61,139 bases of DNA from an uncultured Gammaproteobacteria bacterium. Its GTDB lineage: Bacteria; Patescibacteriota; Patescibacteriia; UBA9934. Position 1 is the first letter of the stretch. The number at the start of each line of letters is the position of its first letter. A model generated the notes under the pieces. The model was given only the letters and a program-made list of their open reading frames with translations, was not told the origin of the DNA and did not search any database. Positions 2 through 40,000 of the stretch are shown here, piece by piece. The position numbers and the translations under genes were made by a program. The stretch is taken from the NCBI GenBank assembly GCA_964599455.1, contig CAZREA010000001.1, forward strand, positions 419,829 through 480,967, in the 5' to 3' direction.

Positions 2-595
2 CCAAAACCCAATGGCTATCAATCTTTGCACACCACGGTTTTTGACCGTGACGGTTCCATTTTAGAATTTCAAATTCGCACCAAACAGATGCATGAAGAA
101 AATGAGTATGGTGTAGCCGCACATTGGAAATATAAAGAAGGAAAGTCTGCCAACGAACGACATGTACATTGGATGGAAGAACTCGCCGCTATTCAAAAAG
201 AACTTTCAACCGCCGACTTCATGAAGGAACTGAACGAGTTCAAACTCGACATGTTCCGCGATCGTATTTTCGTATTCACTCCCCGCGGCGACGTCATCGA
301 TCTTCCCGAAGAATCCACGCCCATCGATTTGGGTTACGCTATTCACACCGAAATCGGCAATAAAGCCGTCCAGTCTCGCGTCAACGGGGAATTACGCCCA
401 CTGAATCATTCTTTACGCTCCGGCGACATGTGCGAAATCATTATCGATAAAAACCGCAAATTTCCCAGCGAAGATTGGTTAAAATTCATCAAAACACGCC
501 ATGCCAAACAAAAAATAAAAGATGCCCTCAAAGGCACACGGCAAAGTTTATGGTCATCGTTTGTGAAACGCACCGTTGGACGCGGGTCGACGTAA
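2..595 (+). CDS. RelA/SpoT-homolog (p)ppGpp synthetase/hydrolase, 3' part only (5' end outside window)
   Basis: Frame is open from nt 2 ([34 protein letters not shown], end of the synthetase domain). A TGS-like segment follows ([21 protein letters not shown]). Stop at 593-595. The protein ends soon after TGS with no ACT/RRM-like tail. Confidence 0.85.
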
Positions 596-604
596 TATTG
601 AAAA

Positions 605-627
605 AATACAGCTCATTGAGCTGTATT
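605..627. terminator. Bidirectional hairpin between convergent rel-like gene and parB
   Basis: aatacagctc-attg-agctgtatt stem-loop flanked by A-run and T-run. Confidence 0.6.
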
Positions 628-628
628 T

Positions 629-1585
629 TTATGTATTTGCATCATCTGCGCCTATGAGCACCGCCTCTCCCGTCATCTTCTTGGTTATATTTCGTAAATC
701 TTCTTTTGAATAAAAATGAACGGAAATCTTGCCGACGCCAGCACGATATTCGACAACGACCTTCGTACCCAAGGCGTCACGCAGAGCGGTTTCTAAAGCA
801 GCTATATTCGGATCTTTCACGCGATTGATGACACGAGTGCGTGCACCTGCCTGTGCCTCGGCAGAACGCACGGTCATGCCCGCGCCAGAAAGCATCTTTT
901 TAAACAAATCGCGACGCAATTGCGGAATCGGCTCGGCTAAAAGGGTACGCGCATGGCTCTTGGAAATCTTTCCTTCGGAGAGCGCTTGTAGCATGTCACT
1001 TTCCAAATCAAGCAAGCGCATCGCATTGGTAACGGTAGAGCGACTCTTTCCTACTTGGCGAGCGATATCTTCATGCGCCAAGCCGTATTCCTCTGACAAT
1101 CGTTTATAGGCACGGGCTTCTTCAACTGCATTCAAATCTTGACGCTGAATATTTTCGATCAAGGCGAGCACCAGCTTATCCTGCCCTTCCGATGATGAAC
1201 GAATAATGACCGGAACTGCTTCCAAACCCAGTCGACGCGATGCTCGCAAACGACGTTCACCGGCAATGAGTTCAAACGTCCCATTGCCGCGATCAGTGAC
1301 CAACAACGGCTGCAAAATACCATGTTCGCGAATGCTTTCAGTAAGCTCATCAAGTTGCTCTTCCAAAAAGACTGCCCGCGGCTGTTCAATATTCTCTACA
1401 ATCAATCCTGGAGAAATAAAACGAACACTCGCGCCGTCAGCCTGAGGCATTTCTTGCGATTCTTGTACTGCCCTTGCTGATACAGAAGAAAGAAAAGGTG
1501 ACTCCTGCACGGTAGGTGCAGGTGAAGGCCCAATGAGTGCTCCAAGCCCTCTTCCCAATCCTCCTTTTGGTTTATCTTGCGTCAT
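629..1585 (-). CDS. parB: Chromosome partitioning protein ParB/Spo0J
   Basis: ParB box IAGERRLRASR and an HTH region (RQVGKSRSTVTNAMRLL). Lies 3 nt downstream of parA. Confidence 0.93.
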   Translation of the reverse strand: MTQDKPKGGLGRGLGALIGPSPAPTVQESPFLSSVSARAVQESQEMPQADGASVRFISPGLIVENIEQPRAVFLEEQLDELTESIREHGILQPLLVTDRGNGTFELIAGERRLRASRRLGLEAVPVIIRSSSEGQDKLVLALIENIQRQDLNAVEEARAYKRLSEEYGLAHEDIARQVGKSRSTVTNAMRLLDLESDMLQALSEGKISKSHARTLLAEPIPQLRRDLFKKMLSGAGMTVRSAEAQAGARTRVINRVKDPNIAALETALRDALGTKVVVEYRAGVGKISVHFYSKEDLRNITKKMTGEAVLIGADDANT

Positions 1586-1588: not shown

Positions 1589-2398
1589 TTACGTGGAGCT
1601 AACGACAGCATCTTGTTCTGTTGTACGCATCTCCTCCTCACGTTCTAAAAATTCTTTTGCCAAACGCTCGTACGCCTTGGCTGCTTTTGAATACGGATCG
1701 TAGTGTAAAATGGTTTTCCCAAAACTCGGTGCTTCAGCTAAACGCACGCTCCGCGGAATCACCGATCGATACATTTTACCAGGAAAATGTTTATACATTT
1801 CTTCAAGCACTTGTCGCGAGAGTATTGCGACGGGATTAAACATAGTAATAACCGCGCCACGGATATCGAGCCGAGGATTAAGATGTTGGCGGACAAGTGA
1901 AATTGTTTGTAATAATTGTCCAAGTCCTTCAAGGGCGTAATATTCTGCTTGTACCGGAACCACAACGCTGTCACTTGCAACCAGACCGTTGATCGTCAGC
2001 AGACCAAGTGACGGTGGATTATCGACAAGAATGTAATCGTACGCTTGAAGAAGCGGTTCGAGGGCCTGTTCAAGACGTCGCTCGCGATTAAAAGCATTCA
2101 CAAGCTCGACCTGTGCACCAGCAAGATTGGGACTCGCAGCAATAAGATGTAAATGTTCATGAGCGGTTGGAAGAACAACGTCCACCGCTTGATGAGTTCC
2201 CGACAACATTTCGTACGTACCTATACTTTCTGTTGGGGTAAAACCAAGACCGCTTGTTGCATTCCCCTGTGGATCTAAGTCCACCAACAAAATCTTTTTG
2301 CCAAAATCAGCAAGATACGCCGCCAAATTCATGGAAGTCGTGGTTTTACCAACACCGCCTTTTTGATTCACCACCGACACAACCTGCGCCATAGACAT
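1589..2398 (-). CDS. parA: Chromosome partitioning ATPase ParA/Soj
   Basis: Deviant Walker A NQKGGVGKTTT and the LVDLDPQGN motif. Forms an operon with parB. Confidence 0.95.
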   Translation of the reverse strand: MSMAQVVSVVNQKGGVGKTTTSMNLAAYLADFGKKILLVDLDPQGNATSGLGFTPTESIGTYEMLSGTHQAVDVVLPTAHEHLHLIAASPNLAGAQVELVNAFNRERRLEQALEPLLQAYDYILVDNPPSLGLLTINGLVASDSVVVPVQAEYYALEGLGQLLQTISLVRQHLNPRLDIRGAVITMFNPVAILSRQVLEEMYKHFPGKMYRSVIPRSVRLAEAPSFGKTILHYDPYSKAAKAYERLAKEFLEREEEMRTTEQDAVVSST

Positions 2399-2464
2399 GA
2401 GCGTATGGTATCACGTGCAGATGAATGAAAAAAGTCTGAAAAGTGGATGAGCAAGATTAAACAT

Positions 2465-2490
2465 AAAATCTCCTGTGAACAGGAGATTTT
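2465..2490 (-). terminator. Hairpin terminator after the tRNA-Met/tRNA-Leu pair
   Basis: aaaatctcctg-tgaa-caggagatttt perfect 11-bp stem immediately 3' of tRNA-Leu on the minus strand. Confidence 0.6.
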
Positions 2491-2491
2491 A

Positions 2492-2578
2492 TGGTGCCTC
2501 GGGAGGGACTCGAACCCTCAACCCCTCACGGGGAACGGATTTTGAGTCCGTCGCGTATACCAATTCCGCCACCAAGGC
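2492..2578 (-). tRNA. tRNA-Leu (anticodon CAA), long variable arm, CCA encoded
   Basis: Reverse complement reads GCCTTGGTGGCGGAATTGGTA...GGACTCAAAATCC...GGTTCGAGTCCCTCCCGAGGCACCA. Cloverleaf with a 7-bp acceptor stem, anticodon loop CU-CAA-AA and a class II variable arm. Confidence 0.9.
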
Positions 2579-2598
2579 TTTTATTTTTATGAAATTTC

Positions 2599-2675
2599 TG
2601 GTGGCTGGGGTGGGAATCGAACCCACGACCTAAGGCTTATGAGTCCTTCGCTCTAACCGACTGAGCTACCCAGCC
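2599..2675 (-). tRNA. tRNA with CAT anticodon (elongator Met or lysidine-modified Ile2), CCA encoded
   Basis: Reverse complement reads GGCTGGGTAGCTCAGTCGGTTAGAGCGAAGGACTCATAAGCCTTAGGTCGTGGGTTCGATTCCCACCCCAGCCACCA. It lacks the 1:72 mismatch and the triple G-C anticodon stem of initiators. Confidence 0.88.
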
Positions 2676-2849
2676 ATGAACAATTTGTCGAAATTCACGC
2701 CCCATAGCCTAACACGTCATGCACTTCCCGACAAGACAGTATTTCCTTCATTTGCCCTTTTATTATTGATCTGATAAAGTACTGTGCATTCAGTAGCTGT
2801 TTCATCTCTGGCGATGCAACCCGAGCAAGGGAGAAAGCGCCGAGCGAAG

Positions 2850-2973
2850 ATTTGCCACTAAGTTTGTCAGATGCTAGGAGTCGACGAGCACCGGCCGAGG
2901 CGTACTGCCTAAAGTACGGTGAGGCCGGAGCGCAAGTCGACGACAACGCAGCTGGCAAACTTGGGTGGCAAAT
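2850..2973. repeat. 124-bp rod-like imperfect palindrome (MITE-like) abutting tRNA-fMet
   Basis: The arms ATTTGCCACTAAGTTTGTCAG and CTGGCAAACTTGGGTGGCAAAT are inverted copies. The GC-rich interior has nested GTCGAC..GTCGAC and CCGGCC..GGCCGG pairings. Confidence 0.6.
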
Positions 2974-2979
2974 CTGTAT

Positions 2980-3056
2980 CGCAGGGTGGAGCAGCCAGGC
3001 AGCTCGCCGGGCTCATAACCCGGAGGTCGCAGGTTCAAATCCTGCCCCTGCAACCA
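2980..3056 (+). tRNA. Initiator tRNA-fMet (CAT), CCA encoded
   Basis: CGCAGGGTGGAGCAGCCAGGCAGCTCGCCGGGCTCATAACCCGGAGGTCGCAGGTTCAAATCCTGCCCCTGCAACCA. Has the C1:A72 mismatch and three G-C pairs closing the anticodon loop. Confidence 0.93.
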
Positions 3057-3060
3057 CAAA

Positions 3061-3090
3061 AACCCCTCATATCGAGGGGTTTTTGTTTTA
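3061..3090 (+). terminator. Intrinsic terminator after tRNA-fMet
   Basis: aacccctc-atatc-gaggggtt followed by tttgtttta. Confidence 0.7.
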
Positions 3091-3124
3091 TTTTAGCGCT
3101 TATGCTATACTATCGCCAATTGCT

Positions 3125-3592
3125 ATGACCCTTACCACTCACGCCGTTATTGGTGCTGCCATTGGTTCAGTTGTCGGCAGCCCGCTCCTTGGCTTTGTCC
3201 TTGGTGCCGCTTCTCACTTCCTGGTCGATATGATCCCTCATGGCGACAACGAACTCGCTGATAAATATCGCTTGCACAAAAAGAAAAAGGCAGCCGTTGC
3301 CTATGTCACCGTCGATGCCGCCATCGCCATTATTCTGCTCATGACGATTGTCTCCGGTCGATCGTCCAACACCACCAATATCGCTTTTTCTGCCGCGGTT
3401 GCCGGAAGCATCATGCCCGATCTGCTCGTCGGTCTAGGAGATATTTACAAACACCAATTTCTCAAAAAGTTCTCCAAACTCCACTTCTTTTTCCACGACT
3501 TTTTCTCCCGCAAATACGGCGACACTAAACTCGCCTACGCCCTCACCGGCCAAGCCGTTTTCATTATTGTGCTCATGCGCATGGTAGCGTAA
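3125..3592 (+). CDS. Small polytopic membrane protein, possibly YdjM/DUF457-like metal-dependent hydrolase
   Basis: Start moved to the ATG at 3125 because the upstream part of ORF 2852..3592 overlaps tRNA-fMet. N-terminus MTLTTHAVIGAAIG..ASHFLVDMIPHGD resembles the His-rich motifs of that family. About 4 hydrophobic segments. Confidence 0.5.
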   Translation: MTLTTHAVIGAAIGSVVGSPLLGFVLGAASHFLVDMIPHGDNELADKYRLHKKKKAAVAYVTVDAAIAIILLMTIVSGRSSNTTNIAFSAAVAGSIMPDLLVGLGDIYKHQFLKKFSKLHFFFHDFFSRKYGDTKLAYALTGQAVFIIVLMRMVA

Positions 3593-3600
3593 AAATAAAA

Positions 3601-3625
3601 ATCATCCTGAAATACTCAGGATGAT
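3601..3625. terminator. Bidirectional terminator hairpin
   Basis: atcatcctga-aatac-tcaggatgat flanked by A-runs and T-runs, between convergent genes. Confidence 0.65.
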
Positions 3626-3642
3626 TTTTATTTTTAAAAGCT

Positions 3643-4104
3643 TCAAAATACATTGATAATTCCAGCGGAGACCAAAGTGACAAATCCCGCTCCGCACAAT
3701 AACCCACAAAAAATACCCACAACCGCTGCACGAAAAGGAATCTTGAGCGTTACGGCAGCAAGCGTCATCGTCCACACACCCGTAAGAGGAAAAGGAACCA
3801 CGAGTGCTAAAAATAAGGCGATTGCTCCATATTTTTCATAATTACCCCGCAATTTTTTATCTGCACGAGCAATTAAGCGATCAAATGGCGTGATGAGTGC
3901 AGGAAAAATGGTCGTGAGATGACGACGTACAAATTCAAATCCAAAATACAATGGTAAAAACGGAATCAACGCGCCAATGACCCCTAAAAAGTAAGCAATG
4001 GGTAGAGAAAAATGATATTGCGTAATAGCAACCGGAATCGCTAATTGATACTCCGTAATCGGAGCAGCCGACAAGGCCATTACTTGCAACCAATCAGGAA
4101 TCAT
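3643..4104 (-). CDS. Small membrane protein (small multidrug export / COG2426-like)
   Basis: Start set at MIPDWLQVMALSAAPITEYQLAIPVA. The ATG overlaps the upstream stop as ATGA (4101-4104). Four predicted TM helices. Confidence 0.55.
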   Translation of the reverse strand: MIPDWLQVMALSAAPITEYQLAIPVAITQYHFSLPIAYFLGVIGALIPFLPLYFGFEFVRRHLTTIFPALITPFDRLIARADKKLRGNYEKYGAIALFLALVVPFPLTGVWTMTLAAVTLKIPFRAAVVGIFCGLLCGAGFVTLVSAGIINVF

Positions 4105-5075
4105 AGTGCAGTATTTTCTGGCCAAGTGTATGCAGCATAAACCCAATCGGCAACATTCGCCGCATCAGTAAAACGATCATCGATATCTTCCGCTCCCAGA
4201 ATCGTCACAAAAATAGGATGCTGCTCGTGATTAAACGCAGCGGTTACACAATAGCCGGCCTGAGGGATATACCCCGTCTTTCCTGCCAAAAGAGGATATC
4301 CCGAACCTACAAAAGTTGAAGTTAACAAATCATTGGTTGTAGAGACCGTCACTTGGAAACCCGAGGCTTGGACAATCGTTTTTTGTGACAGCGTTGTTCG
4401 TGTCGCAATGTCTTGGTATACAGATGCTCGCGCCAACAAGACACTGACTTCTCGGGCCGTGGATACATTGGCGGCCGACAATCCACTCGGATCAGTAAAC
4501 GATGTATGCGTCAATCCCCACTCCCGTGCCTTTTCATTCATCTTTCTTACAAAATCTTCAGTCGACAAACCAGAAAAACGCACCAAGGCCATGGTCGCCG
4601 TATTGTCCGAACCAATCAAACTTGTCGATAAGACATCACCTAATTTCACCGCATCGCGATAGCCAAGATACGCACGACCGCCACCCGCAAAATCTTCAGG
4701 CACAAGTGTTACCCAGGAAGATAAATCGGGATGCATGTCCAAAAAAACACTCGCCGTCATCAACTTGGTAATACTACCGATTGCACGTACTTCATCAGGT
4801 GCTTCAGCATACAAAAGCGCTCCGGAAGCGGCATCAATAACCGCAACGCTTTGTGCCGATGTTTCCAATCCAAACGTCATGACATCAGTTTTAATGGGAA
4901 CAAGATCCTTGGCCGGGGCTACAGGAAGACGAGCAGGGGCCTGTTGAAAATCATATCCACGAAATTGCGGAGCAGCGGCAGCAACAAAAGCGGGCGTAAA
5001 AAATGCCGTATCCACGCCCCACACTTGCAAGCACACGACTGCAAGTAAAATTTCGCCGATCGTTTTTCCCATCAT
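4101..5075 (-). CDS. D-alanyl-D-alanine carboxypeptidase (peptidase S11, PBP5/6-like)
   Basis: SxxK (SITK), SxN (GSDN) and KTG (AGKTGY) motifs in the canonical order. N-terminal signal/anchor present. Confidence 0.88.
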   Translation of the reverse strand: MMGKTIGEILLAVVCLQVWGVDTAFFTPAFVAAAAPQFRGYDFQQAPARLPVAPAKDLVPIKTDVMTFGLETSAQSVAVIDAASGALLYAEAPDEVRAIGSITKLMTASVFLDMHPDLSSWVTLVPEDFAGGGRAYLGYRDAVKLGDVLSTSLIGSDNTATMALVRFSGLSTEDFVRKMNEKAREWGLTHTSFTDPSGLSAANVSTAREVSVLLARASVYQDIATRTTLSQKTIVQASGFQVTVSTTNDLLTSTFVGSGYPLLAGKTGYIPQAGYCVTAAFNHEQHPIFVTILGAEDIDDRFTDAANVADWVYAAYTWPENTAL

Positions 5076-5626
5076 ACCGTTGTTTCCGATTCTTCTAAGG
5101 CATCAAGAATTTTGGTCATACGTCCGTCGCCATGAAAGGCCTGATAATCTGGCAATTCTGTAAGCGCATGCACACCCAAGTATCGTAAAGCATCGAGAGA
5201 TAAAGTATACACCGCTTCACCACGAGACGAATCGTCTTTTTCCTCAATCAATCCCCGCATTAAAAGATTCCGCAAAATCAACGCACACTGCACACCACGA
5301 ATAGCTTCAAGTTCTGGTCGCGTTATCGGGCCGCGATAGGCAATAACCGTCAGTGTCTCAAGCGATGGACGAGTGAGTTCTCCTACTTCATCTTTTGAAA
5401 GTTTTTTTAAAATTTCAGCATGCACAGGATTAGTAACCAATTGATACACTCCATCTTGCTCGAGAATATGGATACCTGATGTTTCTTGATTTTTTCTCTC
5501 AAAAAGATGTCGCATAGCTACTTTCGTCTCTTCTGTAGAAATCTCCAAAATATTCGCCAATTGTTTAATAGATAAAGGCTTAGGGGAAAGAAAAAGGAGA
5601 GATTCGAGCGCAGCTTCGTAGTTCAT
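5072..5626 (-). CDS. scpB: Segregation and condensation protein B
   Basis: Tandem winged-helix pattern (LSIKQLANIL; TLTVIAYRGPITRPELEAIRGV). 4-nt overlap with scpA. Confidence 0.88.
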   Translation of the reverse strand: MNYEAALESLLFLSPKPLSIKQLANILEISTEETKVAMRHLFERKNQETSGIHILEQDGVYQLVTNPVHAEILKKLSKDEVGELTRPSLETLTVIAYRGPITRPELEAIRGVQCALILRNLLMRGLIEEKDDSSRGEAVYTLSLDALRYLGVHALTELPDYQAFHGDGRMTKILDALEESETTV

Positions 5627-6330
5627 ACAGTTTTTTCCAAAGAAGTAATAGTAATGTCATGAAAAGGTTCAAGTTGATGAATCGTTACCTCACGCCGACG
5701 CAACATTTCAAGCAAGGCCAAAAACGTTACCACCACATCAGCAGAATGCTCAGCACTGCTCGCCACTTCACGAAAACTTAATCGAGCACGAACACGAAGC
5801 GCGTCACCAATATGTTTTATACGCTCTTCAACTGAAACGGTACGCACCATACGTTGCTCTCGCAAAGCGAAAAATGGCTCAAGACGACGCAAAAGTCCAC
5901 AGAACGATTCTTGCAATAGCTGCGGTGTGATATTTTTTGCAGGACGAAATTCTTCAACCCGTAACTGACGAATAAAAGGACGAGCAAAAAGCACCCCTCT
6001 TCCCCATTGTACCTGTAGCCGCTTGGCAGCCTCAACAAACTCTTTATATGCACGCAGTCGATCCTCGAGTCGCGTCGCTTCATCTTCTTCATCGGCAAAC
6101 CGAACATACGGTAATAATTCTTTACTTTTAAGATAAATGAGTCGTGCCGCGACAACCAAAAAATCCGCTATCTCATCCTCAGGAACATCAGTCGTTTGAA
6201 TGTGTGCTAAAAAAGCATCAGCCACTTGAGCTAAATGAACCTTTATAATTTCAAGACGCCGCTCTTCAATAAGCTCCAAAAGAAGCGCGAGCGGACCAGA
6301 ATAGGCATCCTGAGTAACCTGGAAAGACAT
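5623..6330 (-). CDS. scpA: Segregation and condensation protein A (kleisin)
   Basis: N-terminus FSGPLALLLELIEERRLEI and C-terminus VVVTFLALLEMLRRREV, typical of ScpA. Confidence 0.88.
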   Translation of the reverse strand: MSFQVTQDAYSGPLALLLELIEERRLEIIKVHLAQVADAFLAHIQTTDVPEDEIADFLVVAARLIYLKSKELLPYVRFADEEDEATRLEDRLRAYKEFVEAAKRLQVQWGRGVLFARPFIRQLRVEEFRPAKNITPQLLQESFCGLLRRLEPFFALREQRMVRTVSVEERIKHIGDALRVRARLSFREVASSAEHSADVVVTFLALLEMLRRREVTIHQLEPFHDITITSLEKTV

Positions 6331-6381
6331 AAAAGCAGTGTAGCGGAAAAACGAGAGTCAAGAAAGCAACAAAAAGCATTG

Positions 6382-6395
6382 ATCCACAACAGGGT
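6382..6395. repeat. Direct repeat ATCCACAACAGGGT (partner at 7005-7021)
   Basis: Identical to 7005-7021 apart from a 3-nt indel. The two copies bracket the hypothetical gene 6431-6952. Confidence 0.6.
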
Positions 6396-6398
6396 ATA

Positions 6399-6426
6399 AA
6401 AACATCACGTCATGACGTGATGTTTT
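6399..6426 (-). terminator. Intrinsic terminator after hypothetical gene
   Basis: aaaacatcacg-tcatga-cgtgatgtttt 11-bp stem with a U-run on the minus strand. Confidence 0.65.
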
Positions 6427-6430
6427 GATC

Positions 6431-6952
6431 CTATATTAACTCATTCAATTTACCTCGAGCCGCATTCAAATCAGCATCTTTTTCCTCTCTTCTTCGTCTC
6501 TCTCGCTCCCGTTCCGCTTTTTCAGCCTCTCTTCTCTGTTGCAAAACGTGATCAACGAATCTCTCCATTTTTGAAGAACTCATTAAAAGCATAATGGCCT
6601 CAAAAGGACCGTGCTCAGCGTCAAGCTTGCCATTATAAATATATTCCCCATTATCTGCGGCAGACGAGCTATCTCTTGAAAAAAGTTGAGTATATCCAAC
6701 CCTCTCTTGCATCTCACCCCTTAACGCATCAAGAATAACTCTATTCGCATCTCTGCCAGCCAAAAGACGAACACGAATCTTATCGCCGTCCTGTACTTGC
6801 TGAAGACGAACATCTTGTAAAGCCGGGACTCGGTTCCCGAATTCAGTCATAAATCCTCCAGCCCATTTCTCCCTCTCGAGTCTTTTTTGTTTTTGTCCTT
6901 CAGTCTCGCTTCCATCCAGCTTATCTGCAAAAGGATTTTCTAGTTTGGGCAT
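6431..6952 (-). CDS. Hypothetical protein with highly charged coiled-coil C-terminus
   Basis: First ATG at 6952 (MPKLENPF...); the longer ORF begins with TTG. C-terminal tail is RREAEKAERERERRRREEKD. No recognisable family. Confidence 0.55.
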   Translation of the reverse strand: MPKLENPFADKLDGSETEGQKQKRLEREKWAGGFMTEFGNRVPALQDVRLQQVQDGDKIRVRLLAGRDANRVILDALRGEMQERVGYTQLFSRDSSSAADNGEYIYNGKLDAEHGPFEAIMLLMSSSKMERFVDHVLQQRREAEKAERERERRRREEKDADLNAARGKLNELI

Positions 6953-7004
6953 AGGAATATTTCCCTTTAATAATAAGACTTCCCTCAAGAAGTTTCATAT
7001 TTTT

Positions 7005-7021
7005 ATCCACAACATCAGGGT
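7005..7021. repeat. Direct repeat ATCCACAACATCAGGGT (partner at 6382-6395)
   Basis: Contains the stop codon of the displaced aspS 3' fragment. Confidence 0.6.
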
Positions 7022-7125
7022 CGCAAACGCTGCACATCTCTCGGGAAAATCGTCGCTTCCTTGATATTCGCTAATCCGAGCACATCTTGCGTCAAACGCT
7101 GAAGATTCATACCGAATCCGCCTTC
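7015..7125 (-). pseudogene. Displaced duplicate of the last 36 codons plus stop of aspS
   Basis: Translates to EGGFGMNLQRLTQDVLGLANIKEATIFPRDVQRLRP*, versus EGGFGMGLQRLTQNVLGLANIKEATIFPRDVQRLRP* at 7597-7707. By hand count 89 of 111 nt are identical. No upstream coding body. Confidence 0.85.
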
Positions 7126-7150
7126 GTAATTTCAAGTTTCCGCTCGTCAA

Positions 7151-7591
7151 TCAGTCCCAACGCGATGATTGACAAATCTCTTCCAACACCTCTTGCTCTC
7201 CTTCAATAAGATCAAGAGACTCTATTTCCAACAAAGAAAAAAAGGCTAATTTATCAACTTTCGGATCTTTTTGATGCAAAATATTCTCTTCATGAATTGG
7301 AACGCAAAGAAAAGGCAACTCTACTATTTGCAGCTGTGTTCCATCAGCTTTTTCTCGATAACGAATAAAGGTACGAGATAACATTCCGAGCACACGAACC
7401 TCCACACCGCTTTCTTCTTCCACTTCACGCACGACCGCCTCTTCAGGCGATTCGCCATACTCTAACTTACCTCCCAATAAATTCCATTTTCCATGAATAG
7501 CAGGAATCTCTGGTTCATATCTTCTTCCCAGCAAATAGCGACCATTTACATCGCGAACAATCGCCAAAACGACCACTAGCTGCTTCGTCAT
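7151..7591 (-). CDS. NUDIX hydrolase
   Basis: Nudix box GGKLEYGESPEEAVVREVEEESGV (GX5EX7REUXEEXGU). Confidence 0.9.
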   Translation of the reverse strand: MTKQLVVVLAIVRDVNGRYLLGRRYEPEIPAIHGKWNLLGGKLEYGESPEEAVVREVEEESGVEVRVLGMLSRTFIRYREKADGTQLQIVELPFLCVPIHEENILHQKDPKVDKLAFFSLLEIESLDLIEGEQEVLEEICQSSRWD

Positions 7592-7596
7592 ATCGC

Positions 7597-8910
7597 TTAT
7601 GGACGAAGTCGCTGTACATCACGTGGGAAAATCGTCGCCTCCTTGATGTTGGCGAGTCCAAGCACATTTTGCGTCAAACGCTGCAGGCCCATACCAAATC
7701 CGCCTTCAGGCGGGATGCCGTATTTGTGCATCATGAGGTAATCCTCGAATTGAGCAGGATCTAAACCTTTATCTTTAATACGTTGCACCTGCTCATCATA
7801 GCGATTCACCCGCATGCCACCAGAAATGATTTCACTACCAAAGCCAACAAGATCGAAACTGAGCGTACCGTTCGGATCATCGGGATTGAGTTTTACGTAG
7901 AAGGGGCGTTTCGATGCCGGGTAGTCGGTCACAAATACAAAACCCGATCTGTAATGCTGCGGTGCCCACACGGTCGACAGCCAGCGCTCGCCCGCCGGGG
8001 AAAGATCAGGCTCACTTGTTTCATCAACGCCACCCTCATCTTTATAAACTTGCAGTGCTTCTTTGAGCGAAATACGAGGAAACTTTTCGCCAAGCGGCGG
8101 CAACGTGACACCCAACAACGAGAGCTCAAGTGCACATTCACGCTCAACGGTCGCGAGCATTTCCCGGATCACCGCCTCAGCATGATCCATAATCTCGTCC
8201 ATGCCATCAACAAAACCAAGCTCAAATTCGAATTGATTGAACTCCGTCAAGTGTCGTGACGTCGCAAACTTTTCAGCACGGAAGGAATACGATAAGCCAT
8301 ACACACCTTCGTAGACTCCCATAGTCATTTGCTTATACAACTGCGCAGATTGTGTGAGCGTTGCTTCACGACCGTAATAGTCAACCTTAAAAAACTCTGC
8401 ACCACCTTCAGAAGCAGCACCTGCCAAAACAGGAAAGAAGATCTCTGTGAATCCCTGACGATTCATGTACTCGCGATAGCCACGAACAAGCGCAGCTTGG
8501 ACGCGGAAAATAGCGCGTTGCTTTGGGTGACGTAAAGTAACGACGCGATTATCCAACAATGTATCGAGCTGTGCATCAATTTCCGGTTTGCTGATTTCCA
8601 CTGGAACTGGATCAAGAACCGGTGAGAGTATCTCGATCGTTTGCGCTTGCACTTCAACTTCTTTTACGCTTGGATCTTTGCTCTTTTTTTCCTTTACGAC
8701 GCCGGTAACCTTAAGAACTGTTTCCATCTGGAAGCCTTTTAGCTGCTCAAGATGTTGCGGTTCTAAAACGACCTGCACAAGTCCGGTTCGATCACGCAAA
8801 ATAGCGAAACCAAAATTCTTCATGTCGCGAAGATTGTGAAGCCAGCCAGCAATAATCACCGTTTCGCCGAGAAGTAAAGGAAGTTCAGAGATGAGTTTGC
8901 GATTGTGCAT
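7597..8910 (-). CDS. aspS: Aspartyl-tRNA synthetase, archaeal/eukaryal-type class IIb
   Basis: OB-fold N-terminus (VIIAGWLHNLRDMKNFGFAILRDRTGLVQVV), class II motifs (FRAEKFATSRHLTEF; GGFGMGLQRL) and C-terminus FPRDVQRLRP. Start chosen at ATG 8910; the alternative at 9000 adds 30 non-conserved residues. Confidence 0.9.
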   Translation of the reverse strand: MHNRKLISELPLLLGETVIIAGWLHNLRDMKNFGFAILRDRTGLVQVVLEPQHLEQLKGFQMETVLKVTGVVKEKKSKDPSVKEVEVQAQTIEILSPVLDPVPVEISKPEIDAQLDTLLDNRVVTLRHPKQRAIFRVQAALVRGYREYMNRQGFTEIFFPVLAGAASEGGAEFFKVDYYGREATLTQSAQLYKQMTMGVYEGVYGLSYSFRAEKFATSRHLTEFNQFEFELGFVDGMDEIMDHAEAVIREMLATVERECALELSLLGVTLPPLGEKFPRISLKEALQVYKDEGGVDETSEPDLSPAGERWLSTVWAPQHYRSGFVFVTDYPASKRPFYVKLNPDDPNGTLSFDLVGFGSEIISGGMRVNRYDEQVQRIKDKGLDPAQFEDYLMMHKYGIPPEGGFGMGLQRLTQNVLGLANIKEATIFPRDVQRLRP

Positions 8911-9059
8911 AGGAGTTAGGAGTGATGAGCGAGGGCCATGATCTGTCCACCACGATGGTCTTCTGAGCCAGCCGTCGGCAAAATTCCATTTTGCCGTCAA
9001 CGGCGTTTCTCAGCCGACCGGAGCAAGGACAGATCATTGCCCGAGCGATATCAAAATAT

Positions 9060-10364
9060 TTATGGAGTAAATCTATTAAGCATCCGAGGAAACGCGATCG
9101 TTTCCCGAATATGATGCACACCGGTAATCCAGCGAACCGTGCGTTCTAATCCAATACCGAATCCACTGTGCGGAACTGAACCGTATTTGCGCGTGTTCAA
9201 GTACCATTCGTATTGTTCAAGTGGATATTTGCGATCGATGATTTCTTGACGCAGAACTTCATAACTCTCTTCACGTTGGCTCCCACCAATAATCTCTCTT
9301 CCCTCTTCCGGCGCAATTAAATCAGCACACCGCGCACGGACGACACCTTCTTCATCCGCATAACGCTTCATGTAAAACGACTTCACGACAAGCGGATAAT
9401 CTTGAATGAAGACGGGTAGCTGATATTTGTTTCCTAAATGAATTTCTTCCTCAGTCGTCATGTCATCAAGGCGATCAACCGTTAAACCATCAGCAGCTAA
9501 GAGATCTTTCGCCTGAGCATGCGTCAAGCGAACAAACGGCTCATCAACCAGACGTTGTAGCAACGTTGTATCGCGTTCGAGAATCTTGAGCTCTTCCTGA
9601 CAATGTTCAAGCACATCTTTTACGATTCTTTTCACCATCTTTTCTTGCAAATCCATGTTCATGACCTGATCAAAAAAAGCCATCTCCGCATCCATCATCC
9701 ATAACTCTGATAAGTGATGCCGTGTCTTGCTTTTCTCGGCACGAAACACTGGTCCAAAATCATACACTTTACCAAAACCCATGATACCGGCCTCGCTATA
9801 AAGCTGACCTGATTGTGACAAATACATTGGTGTACCGTAATAGTCGACACTGAACAGCTGGGTCGTATCTTCGCAACTCGTCGGCTGCAAAATTGGTGCA
9901 TCAAAACGAATAAAACCTTCTTCGTGAAAGAATTGCTCAATTGAGAAAAAAACCCGATCACGAATACGCAATACTGCCCAAGGTGTTTTTGAGCGTAAGT
10001 ACAGATCGCGATTATCAAATAAAAATTCCGGACCATGATCTTTTTTCCCAATCGGATATTCATCGGTAAAAATATGGATTGCCTTGAAACTTGTACCTTG
10101 AATTTCAAATCCAGATGGCGCTCGAGGTTCCGCTTTAACCAAACCCGTGATCTCCACCGAAGATTCGATAGTCAACTTCTGCAATTCTTCCCACTGCTCA
10201 GCGGAAAGTTCAGCGGCGCTGTAGACAATCTGGACAAAACCAGAGCCGTCGCGAAACTGCAAAAAGAAGATCTTTCCGCTCGAACGGAAATTATATGCCC
10301 AACCTTTCAGCGTTACTTCTTGACCGACATGCTCAGCAAGGTGATTGATAGTGATAAAAGACAT
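9060..10364 (-). CDS. asnS: Asparaginyl-tRNA synthetase
   Basis: KGWAYNFRSSGKIFFLQFRDGSGFVQIV, FRAEKSKTRHHLSELWMMDAE, GFGIGLERTVRWITG..IRETIAFPR. AsnRS-type class IIb. Confidence 0.9.
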   Translation of the reverse strand: MSFITINHLAEHVGQEVTLKGWAYNFRSSGKIFFLQFRDGSGFVQIVYSAAELSAEQWEELQKLTIESSVEITGLVKAEPRAPSGFEIQGTSFKAIHIFTDEYPIGKKDHGPEFLFDNRDLYLRSKTPWAVLRIRDRVFFSIEQFFHEEGFIRFDAPILQPTSCEDTTQLFSVDYYGTPMYLSQSGQLYSEAGIMGFGKVYDFGPVFRAEKSKTRHHLSELWMMDAEMAFFDQVMNMDLQEKMVKRIVKDVLEHCQEELKILERDTTLLQRLVDEPFVRLTHAQAKDLLAADGLTVDRLDDMTTEEEIHLGNKYQLPVFIQDYPLVVKSFYMKRYADEEGVVRARCADLIAPEEGREIIGGSQREESYEVLRQEIIDRKYPLEQYEWYLNTRKYGSVPHSGFGIGLERTVRWITGVHHIRETIAFPRMLNRFTP

Positions 10365-32667: not shown

Positions 32668-32771
32668 GTACGAGCTCCAATGAGCAGGTGCTGCGCGATG
32701 CGGGACTGCGATCGCGAGTACGGTACCTTTTTGCAAGATGCCGTTTTCGCGAGTGCAGTGCGCCTACGTGC

Positions 32772-32810
32772 AACCTCCTCCCGGCCTCCTCCTTGAAAAG
32801 GAGGAGGTGA
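32772..32810. repeat. Palindromic element family P1, copy A, flanked by perfect 11-bp direct repeats
   Basis: aacctcctcccgg-CCTCCTCCTTGAAAAGGAGGAGG-tga lies between cgcctacgtgc (32761-71) and cgcctacgtgc (32811-21). Confidence 0.8.
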
Positions 32811-32837
32811 CGCCTACGTGCCTTCGTGCCAAGGTAC

Positions 32838-34224: not shown

Positions 34225-36675
34225 CTACAGCTTAAAATCTTTCACCTCTATCCCCTTCTCTGAAAACAATACTCGAATGTCGCCTTGCAGGTCGGTGCGA
34301 TAGGTCGTCGCTCCAAAAAAAGTGAGTCGATCAAGTACATCTTCGTCGGGCAATCCGTAGCTATTCTCTTCTGCGACAGAAATAATTACTACGGTCGGTC
34401 GGATTTTTTCGAGAAGCTCGGATGACGTTGATGTCCGGCTCCCATGATGACCGACCTTCAGCACATCAACCCTATCAGGCAAGGCATCAAGAAAAAAATC
34501 TTCTTGCTCAACTCCCGCATCACCCGTTAGCAACATTGATCCGTGCGGCGTCTCGAGCAGCGCCACGATAGAACCATCGTTGGGATCATCAATGCGATCA
34601 TTACCATACGGAGCTGCGGGCCAAAGAATACGCAGACGAGTGTCAGGAGCAAGTTCGATCACATCACCTGCTCGAGGAAAAATGCGCTCGGGAATCATCT
34701 TTTGCCACACAAAAAATTCAGATGACGTATATCCTTGTTGCGGATCGTAAACCGACGTCACTGCATACGATTGATAAGTAGGAATCAAACCAATGAGATG
34801 ATCCGCATGTGGATGCGTGACCATCATCGCGTCGATAGAACGATCAAACCACGGCAACACGGCACCAATTTTCTCGGGCATGATCGTTGAAGGTCCGCCA
34901 TCAATGACTACATCTTTACCAGGCGTATCAATGAAAATACCGTCACCTTGTCCGATATTAAATACCCAAACCGAAACCGTATCACGCGAAATCCACGTTC
35001 CGCTTCGGTACGCATGAAAAGCGAGCAATGCCACGATGATTACCACGCCGCCAAATGCAAGCACATTTGTCGAAATTGTAGAAGAAATCTTCTGCGCAGC
35101 CTGTACTGGTTTATGTTCTTTCGCTCGTCGAAAACGAAAGTATATAAAGATTACTCCTGCTCCAATTCCCACAAAAAGCAATTTCACAAACAGATCCGCT
35201 TTCACGCTTGCATACGGGATCTGCGACATCTCACGAATGACAAACAACATTGCCTCAAGCAAAATCCACGGAACAACGGCAAGATATCGTGCGATTGTTG
35301 TTAAAAAAATTCCTAAAACGGTCGTGATTGATCCGGTCAGCATCGCGTACGGAATCAAAGGAAGGACAAGGAGATTCACGAACGGTGCTACAAAGGAAAA
35401 TTGCCCTAAAGAAAAAAGTGTGACCGGCATCGTCGCAAGCGTAGCCGCACAGGTTGTCGCAAAGGCTTCACGTAATCCCAACTTTTCCGGAATGAATGCG
35501 AGACGTTCAGCAAATGGTTTTGCCCAAAACAACAATCCTATCGTCGACAAAACAGAAAGCTGGAATCCGACATCATCACGCAACAATCGTGGCTCGATCA
35601 CAAGCATCGTCGCCACCGTCAGTAAAACGATATTGCGCATGGTTGTTTTGCGTCCGATCATGCGTGCAAGTACGACAAGCGATGCCATGACCCCTGCACG
35701 AGTAACCGCCGCTTCCATTCCCGCCAAAAGAACAAAAAGCAAAATCCCTCCGAGCACAATCCACGTTGCTCGCTTGCGAGGAATGGCAAGTGCGAACAAT
35801 GCGGACAATAGTAATGACACGACAATGGCGACATTTGATCCACTCGCTGCCACAATGTGCGATGTCCCGGTTGTCAAAAATCGTTCATTCCAAGTTTGAG
35901 AAAAAGCGTCATCGCCAATTAACAGTCCCGCGAGAAGTTGCGCGTGCGGATCGGGCAATATGCGATCAATCGCATGCACAACTGCGTCATGCAGATATGC
36001 GGTTGCACGGAGAATTTGAATGCTCCATCGCGAATCCTCTTCGAGAAAGAAAGGAATTTCCCGCGTCGAACAGCGCGCTACAATATCTTTTGCTGCCAAA
36101 AAACGATCGTATGCAAAACCTTCGAACGCTTCCGGTTTTTTCAGCTCACAAAATACTTGTACGCGATCCCCCACGTGCAAGGTTGCAAATAATGGCGCCG
36201 TCACAAGTACACGATCGGTTCGATTTTCTTTATCAACTGCAAGATTTGTGAGGGTGTAGCGCAATGAGGTCTCTGTTTCTTGAATGCGAACGATGGTGCC
36301 GACCACTTCGCGATAGGATTCGGTTGTGTAGATGACAGAGGCAGCATCGGGTTGCACAAGTTGGTAGCGATACCAACCGACGGCAGCGGTAAGAAGGATG
36401 ATGGCGGCGAGCGCCATGCCTGCACGCGACCACCCCCTAGCCCCCTCCTTGAAAAGGAGGGGGAAACGCAGGCTCACACCTTCGCTCCTTCGTACTCCGC
36501 TCAACCACAAAACCATTAGCAAGACAGTAATGCCGAGGACGATATACCCCCACGTCGTGATCGCAAACGAGGCAAAGGCGACTCCAATGATGTATCCCGC
36601 ACAGGCATGCGCAAGAATCCAGCCAGGTTTTAATTGCGGGATGGGCAACATAATGGATGCATTATATATCGCCAT
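34225..36675 (-). CDS. comEC: DNA internalization competence protein ComEC/Rec2 with C-terminal metallo-beta-lactamase domain
   Basis: Polytopic competence domain plus MBL motif VTHPHADHLIG..GHHGS. Start chosen at ATG 36675. Contains the in-frame P1 repeat at 36441-36463. Confidence 0.88.
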   Translation of the reverse strand: MAIYNASIMLPIPQLKPGWILAHACAGYIIGVAFASFAITTWGYIVLGITVLLMVLWLSGVRRSEGVSLRFPLLFKEGARGWSRAGMALAAIILLTAAVGWYRYQLVQPDAASVIYTTESYREVVGTIVRIQETETSLRYTLTNLAVDKENRTDRVLVTAPLFATLHVGDRVQVFCELKKPEAFEGFAYDRFLAAKDIVARCSTREIPFFLEEDSRWSIQILRATAYLHDAVVHAIDRILPDPHAQLLAGLLIGDDAFSQTWNERFLTTGTSHIVAASGSNVAIVVSLLLSALFALAIPRKRATWIVLGGILLFVLLAGMEAAVTRAGVMASLVVLARMIGRKTTMRNIVLLTVATMLVIEPRLLRDDVGFQLSVLSTIGLLFWAKPFAERLAFIPEKLGLREAFATTCAATLATMPVTLFSLGQFSFVAPFVNLLVLPLIPYAMLTGSITTVLGIFLTTIARYLAVVPWILLEAMLFVIREMSQIPYASVKADLFVKLLFVGIGAGVIFIYFRFRRAKEHKPVQAAQKISSTISTNVLAFGGVVIIVALLAFHAYRSGTWISRDTVSVWVFNIGQGDGIFIDTPGKDVVIDGGPSTIMPEKIGAVLPWFDRSIDAMMVTHPHADHLIGLIPTYQSYAVTSVYDPQQGYTSSEFFVWQKMIPERIFPRAGDVIELAPDTRLRILWPAAPYGNDRIDDPNDGSIVALLETPHGSMLLTGDAGVEQEDFFLDALPDRVDVLKVGHHGSRTSTSSELLEKIRPTVVIISVAEENSYGLPDEDVLDRLTFFGATTYRTDLQGDIRVLFSEKGIEVKDFKL
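36425..36470. repeat. P1 palindromic element copy B, in frame inside comEC
   Basis: CCCCCTCCTTGAAAAGGAGGGGG (36441-63) encodes RFPLLFKEGARGW within ComEC. Confidence 0.8.
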
Positions 36676-36702
36676 GTATCGGCCGCGCGTATTCAAACGC
36701 AA

Positions 36703-36725
36703 GAGACGGGTCGCCGACCCGTCTC
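36703..36725. repeat. P2 palindrome GAGACGGGTCGCCGACCCGTCTC, copy 1 (intergenic)
   Basis: Perfect 23-bp palindrome. The twin at 43999-44021 shares the flanking tacg. Confidence 0.8.
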
Positions 36726-36796
36726 TACGGCGACAAAATTCAGCAACGCAATTCGTTTTCGCTAATGCATTTTTGCGATTGCATCCGCGGCACGAT

Positions 36797-36818
36797 GGGG
36801 TCGGGCATGCCCGACCCC
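36797..36818. repeat. P3 perfect palindrome GGGGTCGGGCATGCCCGACCCC touching the leuS stop codon
   Basis: 22-bp perfect palindrome. Confidence 0.8.
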
Positions 36819-39800: not shown

Positions 39801-40000
39801 ATGCGACGCTTACGCGCTATGACATCAAGTGCGGTGTAACTCCGCGGATGACCGACGTGCAAACCAGCTCCTGATGGATAGGGAAACTCGACAAGAACAT
39901 AATATTTTTCTCGCAAATCGTTTTCTTTTGCATAAAAGATGGCACTTTCATGCCACTTTTTTTGCCACTTGGGATCAAAAAACCGATGATCGTACGACAT
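36818..40000 (-). CDS. leuS: Leucyl-tRNA synthetase with two extra inserted domains (ASCH-like and Nudix)
   Basis: HIGH (HVGH) and KMSKS present. CP1 editing motifs TTRPDT and AVPAHDERD present. 1060 aa, roughly 200 aa longer than typical bacterial LeuRS. Confidence 0.95.
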   Translation of the reverse strand: MSYDHRFFDPKWQKKWHESAIFYAKENDLREKYYVLVEFPYPSGAGLHVGHPRSYTALDVIARKRRMEGMNVLFPMGWDAFGLPAENYAIKTGIHPSIVTKQNIETFRRQLQSIGFSFDWSREVDTTDPAYYKWTQWMFLEFFKHGLCYKAKMPINWCPKDKIGLANEEAAGGVCERCGTPVEKREKEQWMIAMTKYADRLLEDLKGVDYLPKIKKEQEEWIGRSEGAEIDFVIGETAARPIEYFKFRPWLCDEIMSGNKTVTFRMEKNIKEGDIVKLINWEAQQVFAMAQVTQIEERSLKDVPLDFPGHEHDAQTLEERRKIYSTYYKREITDDDLVYIYHFKLTNPIITVFTTRPDTVFGVTYVVLAPEHPLVSRITTDAQRAEVDAYVATTKNKTDEERGDLSREKTGVFTGAYAVNPANGEKVPIWVADYVVGSYGTGAVMAVPAHDERDWAFAKKYHLSIRSVVQSLFVRSSGDDALRPDAPFVKRKAAVCVIKHWNEEKYLCVKYKANTWQGFVIGGIEDGEEPIEAAMREIKEETGYQNMRLVRKLGDSIHSQFYHMVKKQNRWAEFSGMLFELADDTHQEIADDEKALADLVWISRDEVMSFITADDMKEVWRRIGRDDQCTPEKGILTNSDQFSELTSDDAIQKITTWLEEQGSGRKKVTYRLRDWVFSRQRYWGEPIPLVHCENGCASEHDGWVPVPETDLPVTLPQVEKYEPTDTGESPLSLIPDWMNTSCPQCGGKATRETDTMPNWAGSSWYFLRYADPHNDQAFASKDKLKHWLPVDVYNGGMEHATRHLLYARFWTKVLFDRGHVPFSEFCQKRIAHGLILAEDGTKMSKSKGNVVNPDDIVQAYGADTLRVYELFMGPFEEPVPWSMNGVIGVRRFLDRVVRMAEFVSDSEDASLKKKVYKTLEKITKDIEGYRFNTAVAALMTLVNDVYEQKVITKESFKLILMMLVPFAPHVANELWEKIGEKGFVEEQPWPQFDSAFLTDDEMTIAVQVNGKLRGNITVPADATDEQIVAIAKQNENVAKHLTNEPKKTIVVKGKIVNFVL

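Follow-up and report, generated by a model that had tools for sequence, protein, structure and literature searches.

The 3' end of aspS, the gene for aspartyl-tRNA synthetase (AspRS), occurs twice in a window of 61,139 nucleotides from a Candidatus Uhrbacteria (Patescibacteria/CPR) bacterium, once at the end of the complete gene (copy A) and once beyond a Nudix hydrolase gene (copy B) (Table 1). We lean towards the explanation that this is the scar of a homology-anchored, one-sided illegitimate recombination between related Uhrbacteria lineages at a hypervariable site. What we describe is a molecular fossil, an old DNA-exchange junction, and no new kind of system.

Table 1 Features of the aspS-scpA region, with positions counted from the first letter of the window
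Feature	Position	Strand	Basis and remarks
asnS, asparaginyl-tRNA synthetase	9060-10364	-	NCBIfam NF003037, 492.6 bits (cutoff 414); conserved left flank
aspS, working gene for an archaeal-type non-discriminating AspRS, 437 aa, full length	7597-8910	-	Pfam and NCBIfam
Copy A	7597-7707	-	aspS codons 402-437 and TAA stop; motif 3 (GGFGMGLQRL) to C-terminus
Spacer, 5 nt, aspS stop to Nudix start	7592-7596	-	Read from sequence
Nudix hydrolase gene, stand-alone, MutT-like, 146 aa	7151-7591	-	Pfam PF00293, 2.9e-19
Spacer, 25 nt, Nudix stop to copy B	7126-7150	-	Read from sequence; 3' end is the novel junction
Copy B	7015-7125	-	Last 36 codons and TGA stop; non-functional aspS relic, attributed to a different but related lineage
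ORFan, 173 aa from ATG (185 aa from TTG at 6988)	6431-6952	-	Directly downstream of copy B
scpA	5623-6330	-	Pfam SMC_ScpA; conserved right flank closing the hypervariable aspS-scpA interval

An ungapped comparison of the two copies gave the same count as the hand alignment of the preliminary description, with 89 of 111 nt identical. Only two of the 36 residues differ between the translations (G408N, from GGC to AAT, and N415D), and copy B has a stop codon of its own, as had also been reported, TGA in place of the TAA of copy A. Third codon positions account for 15 of the 22 nucleotide differences, and the longest identical run is 15 nt. The window has no other long direct repeat of this kind. 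Homology between the copies ends sharply, with codon 402 as one limit and the stop codon as the other; no similarity was found beyond the repeat edges on either side, where the flanks align no better than shuffled sequence. The earlier statement that the 470 bp between the copies are exactly the Nudix gene is close without being literal, as positions 7126-7596 comprise 471 nt (5 + 441 + 25). The 25-nt spacer resembles neither the DNA that follows Nudix in three relatives (L046, L048 and L099) nor aspS sequence upstream of codon 402.

The calculation of dN/dS proposed in the preliminary description, carried out on A against B by the Nei-Gojobori method, gave pS = 0.57, pN = 0.073 and dN/dS = 0.07. 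In neutral simulations with 21 random substitutions, none of 100,000 runs produced two or fewer amino-acid changes and no stop (mean 13.7). A neutral tandem duplication is ruled out by the dN/dS together with these simulations. With a ratio as low as 0.07, most of the differences between A and B appear to have arisen in working aspS genes of different lineages, and to this extent the suggestion that the copies diverged under purifying selection in separate genomes holds, each having lain within a working aspS when most of the differences arose. The third-position identity of A and B is 0.58; that between A and the ends from other species ranges from 0.39 to 0.61. By this measure the divergence of the two copies is about that found between aspS ends from separate species. 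Copy A has the same amino-acid sequence as the aspS ends of L012, L019 and L053. No DNA of the region is better conserved than the aspS end, whose nucleotide identity is 77-82% compared with about 68-74% in the rest of the gene.

Both amino-acid changes in copy B alter residues that are invariant in 35 of 35 orthologous ends, one of them a motif-3 glycine, and we consequently regard copy B as a dead, non-functional relic of a foreign or displaced aspS. Searches with tblastn and blastn over 38 related loci found no second copy of the aspS end. A more sensitive scan returned weak matches in L008, L051, L094 and L001; these are not collinear with the aspS end and were dismissed as chance. A tally of counts places A and B about equally near to in-group and out-group aspS ends, and neither GC nor GC3 separates the two as to which is native; the deep branches of the AspRS tree are poorly resolved. 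Copy B also contains an ORF of 31 codons with an ATG (7015-7110), at which an independent annotation called a gene of 31 aa.

Since the window comes from a metagenome assembly, an artefact had to be considered, for example the collapse of strain variants or a chimeric join. Two Logan contigs from wastewater runs, one of 22.5 kb (X1) and one of 6.2 kb (X2), contain the complete region without a single difference. Shorter contigs, again with 0 differences, cross the junctions at 7532-7704 (X3), 6956-7226 (X4, a second study) and 6959-7332 (X6, a third study), and matching contigs overall come from eight runs in three studies, with 0 differences and with each junction spanned. According to the tool description, Logan assemblies are built from words of 31 letters. 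Identical runs between the copies never exceed 15 nt, so the two should not be confused in such assemblies. The independent junction-spanning contigs from three studies rule out collapsed variants, and the likelihood of any artefact is negligible.

The gene to which copy A belongs shows every mark of a functional aspS. Its product matches Pfam tRNA-synt_2 (1e-72) and the OB anticodon domain, it passes the curated equivalog cutoff of NCBIfam NF003483 over residues 3-437 (462.6 bits against 353), and it is collinear over its whole length with orthologues of 437 aa (75-84% identity); no closer relative, with an AspRS identity above 84%, was found. In nearly all relatives asnS lies upstream of aspS, and the order asnS-aspS-[variable interval]-scpA-scpB is kept, the interval ranging from 10 nt to 4.4 kb. 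Across the eight relatives whose intervals were compared, no ORF other than Nudix is shared. The pairs asnS/aspS and scpA/scpB thus form conserved flanks and potential anchors, with core genes directly bordering the site. One interval (L061) holds two full-length class II aminoacyl-tRNA synthetase (aaRS) paralogues between aspS and scpA. In the window, the ORFan has as its sole match among 5.8 billion proteins itself and matched no Pfam family; its GC3 is 0.35, against 0.47 for aspS. The genes on both flanks point to the same nearest relatives, with identities that agree, and the foreign piece would accordingly be small. The preliminary description had named a tandem arrangement fixed in related genomes, with no empty sites, as evidence that would count against it. 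The search for empty sites that it proposed gave the opposite result, since the relatives include such sites and do not have the tandem arrangement.

The Nudix gene scores 69.8 bits against PF00293 (cutoff 21.1), and its Nudix box is intact from G41 to V63 (G41-x5-E-x7-REVxEExGV; family form GX5EX7REUXEEXGU). Its best matches among solved structures are MutT/NudI/CTP-pyrophosphohydrolase-like, with E values of 4e-10 or weaker, and no curated NCBIfam cutoff was reached. Orthologues, 69-88% identical, immediately follow aspS in L046, L048 and L099; in L101 one gene intervenes. The gap between aspS and Nudix is 7 nt in L048 and L099 and 40 nt in L046; the same placement, 7-40 nt after aspS, is found in L046, L048 and L099/L100 and, behind a gene fragment of no assigned identity, on the P0002 contig. 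No repeat surrounds Nudix at any aspS-Nudix locus for which DNA was available, L046, L048 and L099/L100 among them. The idea of Nudix as a mobile cassette with repeats of its own finds no support in these relatives, since in at least five related contigs it directly follows aspS with no repeat at all. The closest Nudix-bearing relative has the order aspS-Nudix-tRNA-scpA. The gene is missing from some close kin of its bearers, for example from L051 beside L046 (96% bootstrap) and from L002, L007, L009 and L050, all in the L048 clade (100% bootstrap). Compared with its closest relative it has a pS of 0.67, and it is therefore as saturated as the flanking genes (0.68-0.78), which gives no support to a recent arrival. 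A phage origin found no support in viral contigs, whose matches were distant only (38-48% over partial length).

The recurrent association of Nudix with aaRS genes that had been proposed stands for the stand-alone orthogroup, which also occurs in the order lysS-Nudix-serS, and falls for the Nudix domain inside LeuRS, which has nothing in common with the stand-alone protein beyond the Nudix box and was rejected as its kin. On these gene orders Nudix is best explained as an accessory gene that regularly accompanies class II aaRS genes; lineages may have gained, lost and exchanged it through recombination of the type that we propose for the window.

A second relic of an aspS end, independent of the first, is found on contig L101; its boundaries are different and its flanks mosaic. 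Here PsbP_2 lies between aspS-end repeats of 33 nt (score 22, reached by 0 of 200 shuffles). The repeat in the window runs from codon 402 to the stop; that in L101 differs at both ends, running from codon 430 to 9 nt beyond the stop, so that the relic contains 24 coding nt. Compared with L099, L101 is about 84% identical in asnS-aspS; the figure rises to 91-99% for the stretch running from the relic through Nudix and falls to 67-80% in scpA. The PsbP_2 case is the sole other repeat-flanked insertion and, with its different boundaries, it gives no support to a fixed integration site.

Copy B is best explained as marking the joint of two haplotypes, aspS-Nudix and aspS-ORFan-scpA. DNA of a relative would have recombined into the aspS-scpA interval, one end being anchored by homology in a conserved flank (aspS, or scpA/scpB) and the other being joined illegitimately inside or beside the aspS end. 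Because one aspS stayed complete, a 111-nt piece of the gene from the other lineage would have been left stranded downstream of Nudix, where its decay has begun, and no dedicated integrase would have been involved. The incoming DNA may equally have been copy A with Nudix or copy B with the ORFan next to it. Both parental arrangements exist among the relatives between conserved anchors: aspS-Nudix in L046, L048 and L099, and Nudix-free in about 30 related loci. A change of ancestry across the joint is seen only in the parallel case, L101 against L099, the window having no comparator. From the sequences we infer a mechanism that is homologous on one side and illegitimate on the other, with DNA uptake as the entry route. 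ComEC, encoded in the window at 34225-36828, is counted as a possible route for such uptake, and transformation would then take place in the organism. Two features sit less easily with this one-sided joining: the presence of two independent relics at the same gene end could mean a site preference, which plain illegitimate joining does not predict, and the 11 identical nt at the left edge of the repeat resemble an att core, although a match of this length has a chance of ~0.2 (estimated as 0.58 cubed, for three third positions).

The preliminary description had instead proposed an integrative element with a surrogate 3' end. In such a remnant of the e14/icd type an integrase element would have supplied a surrogate aspS end at codon 402, displaced the native end to the position of copy B and lost all but Nudix. 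The layout matches that of the e14 prophage between icd and icdC, in which the working gene runs into the element and a C-terminal pseudogene stands at the opposite end (PMC13626634); here, too, a direct repeat of the 3' end brackets the inserted gene, Nudix, and aspS is full length. The identical nt that open the repeat would fit an att core, the left edge of copy A lies within the loop of a CCGCC-TGAA-GGCGG palindrome, and L101 provides a second repeat-flanked insertion at an aspS end; for the 582-bp unit consisting of the A end, Nudix and the 25-nt spacer, the candidate crossover edge is the GAAGGCGGATT edge. The palindrome, however, is explained by the codons for Pro-Pro-Glu-Gly-Gly and is not conserved at the nucleotide level. 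No recombinase or remnant of one was found inside or beside the repeat: the nucleotides between A and B hold Nudix only, with no integrase fragment, and no recombinase family is matched by any of the 48 ORFs scanned in the window, in accord with the earlier statement that it contains no integrase, or by the 7 cargo ORFs from relatives. There is also no constant crossover core or repeat boundary. Copy A followed by Nudix is the ordinary contiguous order in repeat-free relatives, the other Nudix loci being without a repeat, and since the L101 boundaries differ at both ends they misfit a single att site. The integrative element with a surrogate end is thus unsupported, and we consider it quite unlikely.

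Copy B might also be what is left of a complete second aspS, a xenologue, which once functioned in the interval and later lost nearly all of its sequence by deletion. The interval accepts whole additional class II aaRS genes, as the paralogues in L061 show, the signature of purifying selection fits a gene that once worked, and small CPR genomes, we assume, tend to delete redundant DNA. But two events are needed, with a deletion that spared exactly the last 36 codons; the relatives examined have no tandem second aspS orthologue, and the short L101 relic, located at a mosaic breakpoint, is a better fit to a joint made in one step. Such a history is unlikely. Very unlikely, in our view, are integrase-independent cassettes, that is, small circles of an aspS end and one gene that arise by recombination between repeats and enter another lineage through one homologous crossover at its aspS end. 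The high conservation of the aspS end within the region, the two independent single-gene insertions between aspS-end repeats and the variable repeat length, which a Campbell-type insertion predicts, are in its favour. Against it, no circle, excision joint or alternative haplotype appears in the assembled contigs, as distinct from the reads, of the eight runs, 80% identity over 111 nt makes a poor substrate for homologous recombination, and Nudix usually occurs free of repeats. Retention of copy B for a function, for instance as the 31-codon ORF or in regulating the genes that follow, is extremely unlikely. The frame is open with an ATG, was called as a gene by the independent annotation and runs through 111 nt with no frameshift or stop. 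Yet the only amino-acid changes fall on residues invariant in AspRS, the relatives have no such ORF, an intact frame over this length is expected by chance at such a degree of decay, and no known RNA family is matched in the region.

Little is known about gene exchange in the small genomes of CPR/Patescibacteria, and under the one-sided recombination that we favour the locus offers, at the aspS-scpA hotspot, a scar of exchange between related lineages that can be dated and is resolved to the base. This scar, the second independent one and the mosaic flanks suggest that homology-anchored recombination, rather than classical mobile elements, moves accessory genes here. It is a very doubtful thought that the highly conserved last ~110 nt of aspS serve as portable homology in Uhrbacteria, with which single-gene cassettes (Nudix, PsbP_2 and others) hop between lineages with no recombinase of their own, a displaced aspS-end relic staying behind after every hop; if true, an essential gene would here be the anchor of a cassette system that works free of integrases. 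The conserved aspS-Nudix and lysS-Nudix-serS linkage is a candidate functional lead, for example to the clearance of Ap4A or related aaRS by-products.

aaRS enzymes produce Ap4A. The Nudix gene of the window resembles those of Nudix Ap4A/MutT-like hydrolases in its intact Nudix box, its small single domain and its class II aaRS neighbourhood, and Nudix Ap4A hydrolases (PMC10148737, PMC7705103) may provide a functional link to aaRS genes.

Among known systems for the arrangement itself, islands and prophages at tRNA and tmRNA 3' ends have a fixed crossover core and an integrase. The locus shares with them the 3' direct repeat, the restored gene, the displaced fragment at the distal end and the hotspot of variable cargo; it differs in the unlike repeat boundaries of the window and L101, and no integrase was found. 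Prophage e14 in icd of Escherichia coli is about 15 kb long and is excised by SOS-induced site-specific recombination (Hill et al. 1989, as described in PMC13626634). In both cases an essential gene is kept intact by an inserted alternative 3' end, the other end remaining as a C-terminal pseudogene at the far junction, and the two end copies differ mainly by conservative or synonymous changes. Here, in contrast, there is only a Nudix gene of 441 nt with no recombinase found, and relatives have a repeat-free aspS-Nudix. Homology-facilitated illegitimate recombination during natural transformation or conjugation is an established process (PMC3240628); the experiments that characterised it used E. 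coli and a few competent bacteria, none of them CPR. The likeness lies in the combination of a homologous end with an illegitimate end, a process that can duplicate part of the anchor gene and produce mosaic flanks, such as those of L101 against L099.

We have found that the working aspS gene of the window is followed, after 5 nt, by a Nudix gene and, after a further 25 nt, by a second copy of its own 3' end. The two ends, copy A (the end of the working gene, 7597–7707) and copy B, are homologous from exactly codon 402 (GAAGGCGGATT...) to the stop codon, and beyond the repeat their flanks show no likeness above the level of shuffled sequences. They are identical at 89 of 111 nucleotides and differ in 2 of 36 residues; third codon positions account for 15 of the 22 nucleotide differences (pS 0.57, pN 0.073, dN/dS 0.07), and none of 100,000 random-substitution simulations gave as few amino-acid changes. 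The observation in the preliminary description of two copies differing almost only at synonymous sites is real and statistically secure; its further statement, that the stretch between them is exactly the Nudix gene, holds in that this is the sole gene there, but the 471 nt also include the two spacers. The window has no other long repeat of this type. The left edge of copy A lies in the loop of a perfect palindrome (CCGCC-TGAA-GGCGG), a site that may be fragile or prone to form hairpins.

An assembly artefact is an unlikely explanation of the repeat and was rejected, as independent contigs cross both junctions without differences. A 6,190-bp Logan contig is 100% identical to the window over the whole region, contigs of 22.5 kb and 6.2 kb (sequencing runs X1 and X2, respectively) extend over all of it with 0 differences, and short contigs of run X3 and of two further studies (X4 and X6) bridge the A–Nudix or the Nudix–B–ORFan junction, again with none.

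Features of the window and of related loci
Locus	Feature	Coordinates	Strand	Remarks
Window	asnS	9060-10364	-	
Window	aspS	7597-8910	-	Archaeal-type, non-discriminating, full-length, 437 aa; NF003483 462.6 bits, cutoff 353
Window	Nudix gene	7151-7591	-	MutT-like, 146 aa; PF00293 2.9e-19; Nudix box intact
Window	Copy B	7015-7125	-	Last 36 aspS codons + stop
Window	ORFan	6431-6952	-	173 aa
Window	scpA	5623-6330	-	
Window	scpB	5072-5626	-	
Window	Palindrome	7700-7713	-	Pro-Pro-Glu-Gly-Gly codons; no DNA-level conservation in relatives
Window	asnS-aspS spacer	8911-9059		
Window	Spacer hairpin	about 8925-9045	-	~115 nt; recurring 47-nt piece 8965-9011
Window	LeuRS	36818-40000	-	1060 aa; ASCH (247-345) and NUDIX (491-616) domains flank editing domain
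Window	GC-rich hairpin repeats	32762-32813, 36418-36469, 42279-42330		Intergenic
Window	Weak tRNA	48760-48834	+	Rfam 32.5 bits, gathering score 29; not reported by ARAGORN
L046	Nudix gene			40 nt after aspS, then RHS toxin
L046	RHS-repeat protein	1590-3914		774 aa; EndoU-like toxin domain; small overlap with preceding Nudix
L048	Nudix gene			7 nt after aspS; truncated to pseudogene
P0002	Nudix gene			7 nt after a gene fragment
L099/L100	Nudix gene			60.8-kb contig; directly after aspS
L061	Interval	6321-10232		HIT-family gene; two full-length, high-GC class II aaRS paralogues (444, 433 aa)
L099	76-nt tRNA gene	6594-6669		Anticodon UGA
L101	76-nt tRNA gene	4068-4143		Anticodon UAA
L010	76-nt tRNA gene	2388-2463		Anticodon UGA
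L047, L095, L098	Distant Nudix genes	1542-1973, 2028-2456, 291-677		lysS-Nudix-serS or X-Nudix-serS

Across the group, the last 36 residues of AspRS hardly vary (32–37 of 37 positions, counting the stop), and the DNA of the aspS ends differs by ~18–31%. Copy A matches the ends of other species at 77 to 91 of 111 nucleotides, and its third-position identity is 0.58 with copy B and 0.39–0.61 with other species. Since A and B have diverged about as far as the ends of different species, it is supported that most of their differences arose within working aspS genes of separate lineages; with the low dN/dS, this supports the earlier suggestion of purifying selection in different genomes before the copies were joined. 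Both amino-acid changes in copy B, at G408 (a codon with three substitutions) and N415, fall on residues identical in 35 of 35 orthologous ends, and we read G408 as part of the class II motif-3 GxGxGxxR region. These changes indicate that copy B is the non-functional copy, in which decay has begun, and a functional role for it is unlikely.

The closest loci belong to Patescibacteria / Candidatus Uhrbacteria MAGs. None of 5.8 billion proteins is an AspRS with more than 84% identity to that of the window, whose species is therefore without a close sequenced relative. The order asnS-aspS-[interval]-scpA-scpB is kept in 38 related loci, none of which was found to carry its own aspS end twice. The interval ranges from 10–30 nt (in effect empty sites, at L009, L012, L014 and L056) to 4.4 kb and carries an RHS/EndoU toxin, a deaminase, a cupredoxin, a HIT protein with two extra aaRS paralogues, and several ORFans; in eight relatives compared, no ORF apart from Nudix is common to the contents. 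Its variable length and unshared cargo make the interval a hypervariable hotspot. In three close relatives a 76-nt tRNA gene, with differing anticodons and compensatory stem changes, lies at the same place between aspS/Nudix and scpA; it is missing from the corresponding position in the window and looks too short for the long variable arm that Ser/Leu tRNAs should have.

Nudix homologues of 69–88% identity adjoin the aspS 3' end in several contigs. The best comparator is the related locus L099, which reads RuvX-RecO-asnS-aspS-(7 nt)-Nudix-(315 nt containing tRNA)-scpA-scpB-PepS11, collinear with the window, and where copy B and the ORFan are both missing. This adjacency shows that A–Nudix is an ordinary contiguous arrangement in the group rather than an attP-like element end. 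In a bootstrapped AspRS tree, lineages with and without Nudix are intermixed (L046 with L051 at 96%; L048 with L002, L007, L009 and L050 in a 100% clade), and in L048 the gene is decaying; it is thus repeatedly gained and lost. Synonymous sites between the window and L099 are equally saturated in Nudix (pS 0.67) and in recO, scpA, pepS11 and aspS (0.68–0.77), and this comparison gives no sign of recent entry of Nudix into the window's lineage. More distant members (45–64% identity) lie beside serS, and the conserved neighbourhood of Nudix and class II aaRS genes may reflect a functional link such as Ap4A turnover. The NUDIX domain of the window's LeuRS has the Nudix box alone in common with the stand-alone protein (16/33 identities).

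The asnS-aspS spacer, 4–155 nt in relatives, holds in the window a near-perfect hairpin just upstream of aspS (−65.9 kcal/mol, z −6.3) that matches no Rfam family. Because other contigs from the same samples carry its 47-nt piece with 4 mismatches, the hairpin appears to be a palindromic repeat element. Elsewhere, members of a GC-rich hairpin family (...CCTCCTCCTTGAAAAGGAGGAGG...) may be terminators or REP-like elements.

The best-supported reading of the repeat is one-sided homologous plus illegitimate recombination between related lineages. These would recombine at the hotspot bounded by conserved genes, with one end homologous and the other an illegitimate joint, so that a complete aspS would be preserved and part of the other lineage's aspS stranded. 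Either A and Nudix entered a genome reading aspS-ORFan-scpA, or B and the ORFan entered one reading aspS-Nudix-(tRNA)-scpA, as at L099, replacing the tRNA-bearing spacer; aspS-end distances, GC3, flank identities and dS do not separate the two directions. DNA uptake is a plausible entry route because ComEC is encoded in the window. The proposal that Nudix came as cargo of an integrative element with a surrogate aspS 3' end is not supported: no recombinase family was matched by 48 scanned window ORFs (mostly core genes: ribosomal proteins, EF-Tu/G, SecY, ParAB, IF-2 and others) or by 7 cargo ORFs from relatives, A–Nudix is ordinary in relatives, and the repeat boundaries differ between the window and L101. 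A decayed element like e14 in icd would give this geometry, and the repeat opens with 11 identical nt, but it fails on recombinase, recurrence and fixed boundaries and is not supported. Copy B is possibly a trimmed second aspS xenologue, as whole aaRS genes do land in the interval (L061), but this requires two steps. Integrase-free circles using the aspS end as portable homology are improbable.

A second, independent aspS-end relic is found at L101, a locus of the L099 clade (AspRS 96% identical) with a 207-aa PsbP_2-like gene between aspS and Nudix. Just before Nudix, GATGTACAAAAATTGAGGCCGTAA-TATTTTTAT repeats the last 24 coding nt of aspS and 9 downstream nt (29/33 identical; alignment score 22, which none of 200 shuffles attained). 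This repeat starts at codon 430, against 402 in the window, and continues past the stop. Identity between L101 and L099 is mosaic: ~84% over asnS-aspS, 91–99% over a stretch that begins with the final 13 nt of the relic, takes in Nudix and reaches about 170 nt past it, and 67–80% over the tRNA and scpA. This places recombination breakpoints at the end of aspS and immediately upstream of the tRNA. The relic marks a junction of DNA with different ancestry. Weak matches resembling the aspS end in L008, L051, L094 and L001 show no collinearity with it and were attributed to chance.

For the study of gene flow in CPR bacteria the aspS-end scar is moderately interesting, and the locus also bears on the conserved linkage of Nudix and aaRS genes. 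Scars of this kind, displaced gene-3'-end pseudogenes at recombination junctions, are already known; this example is new. Its geometry matches that described for icd/icdC (PMC13626634), but none of the scanned window ORFs matched a recombinase family, and the repeat boundaries are not the same in L101. The proposed mechanism resembles homology-facilitated illegitimate recombination, in which one end is likewise homologous and the other an illegitimate joint (PMC3240628).
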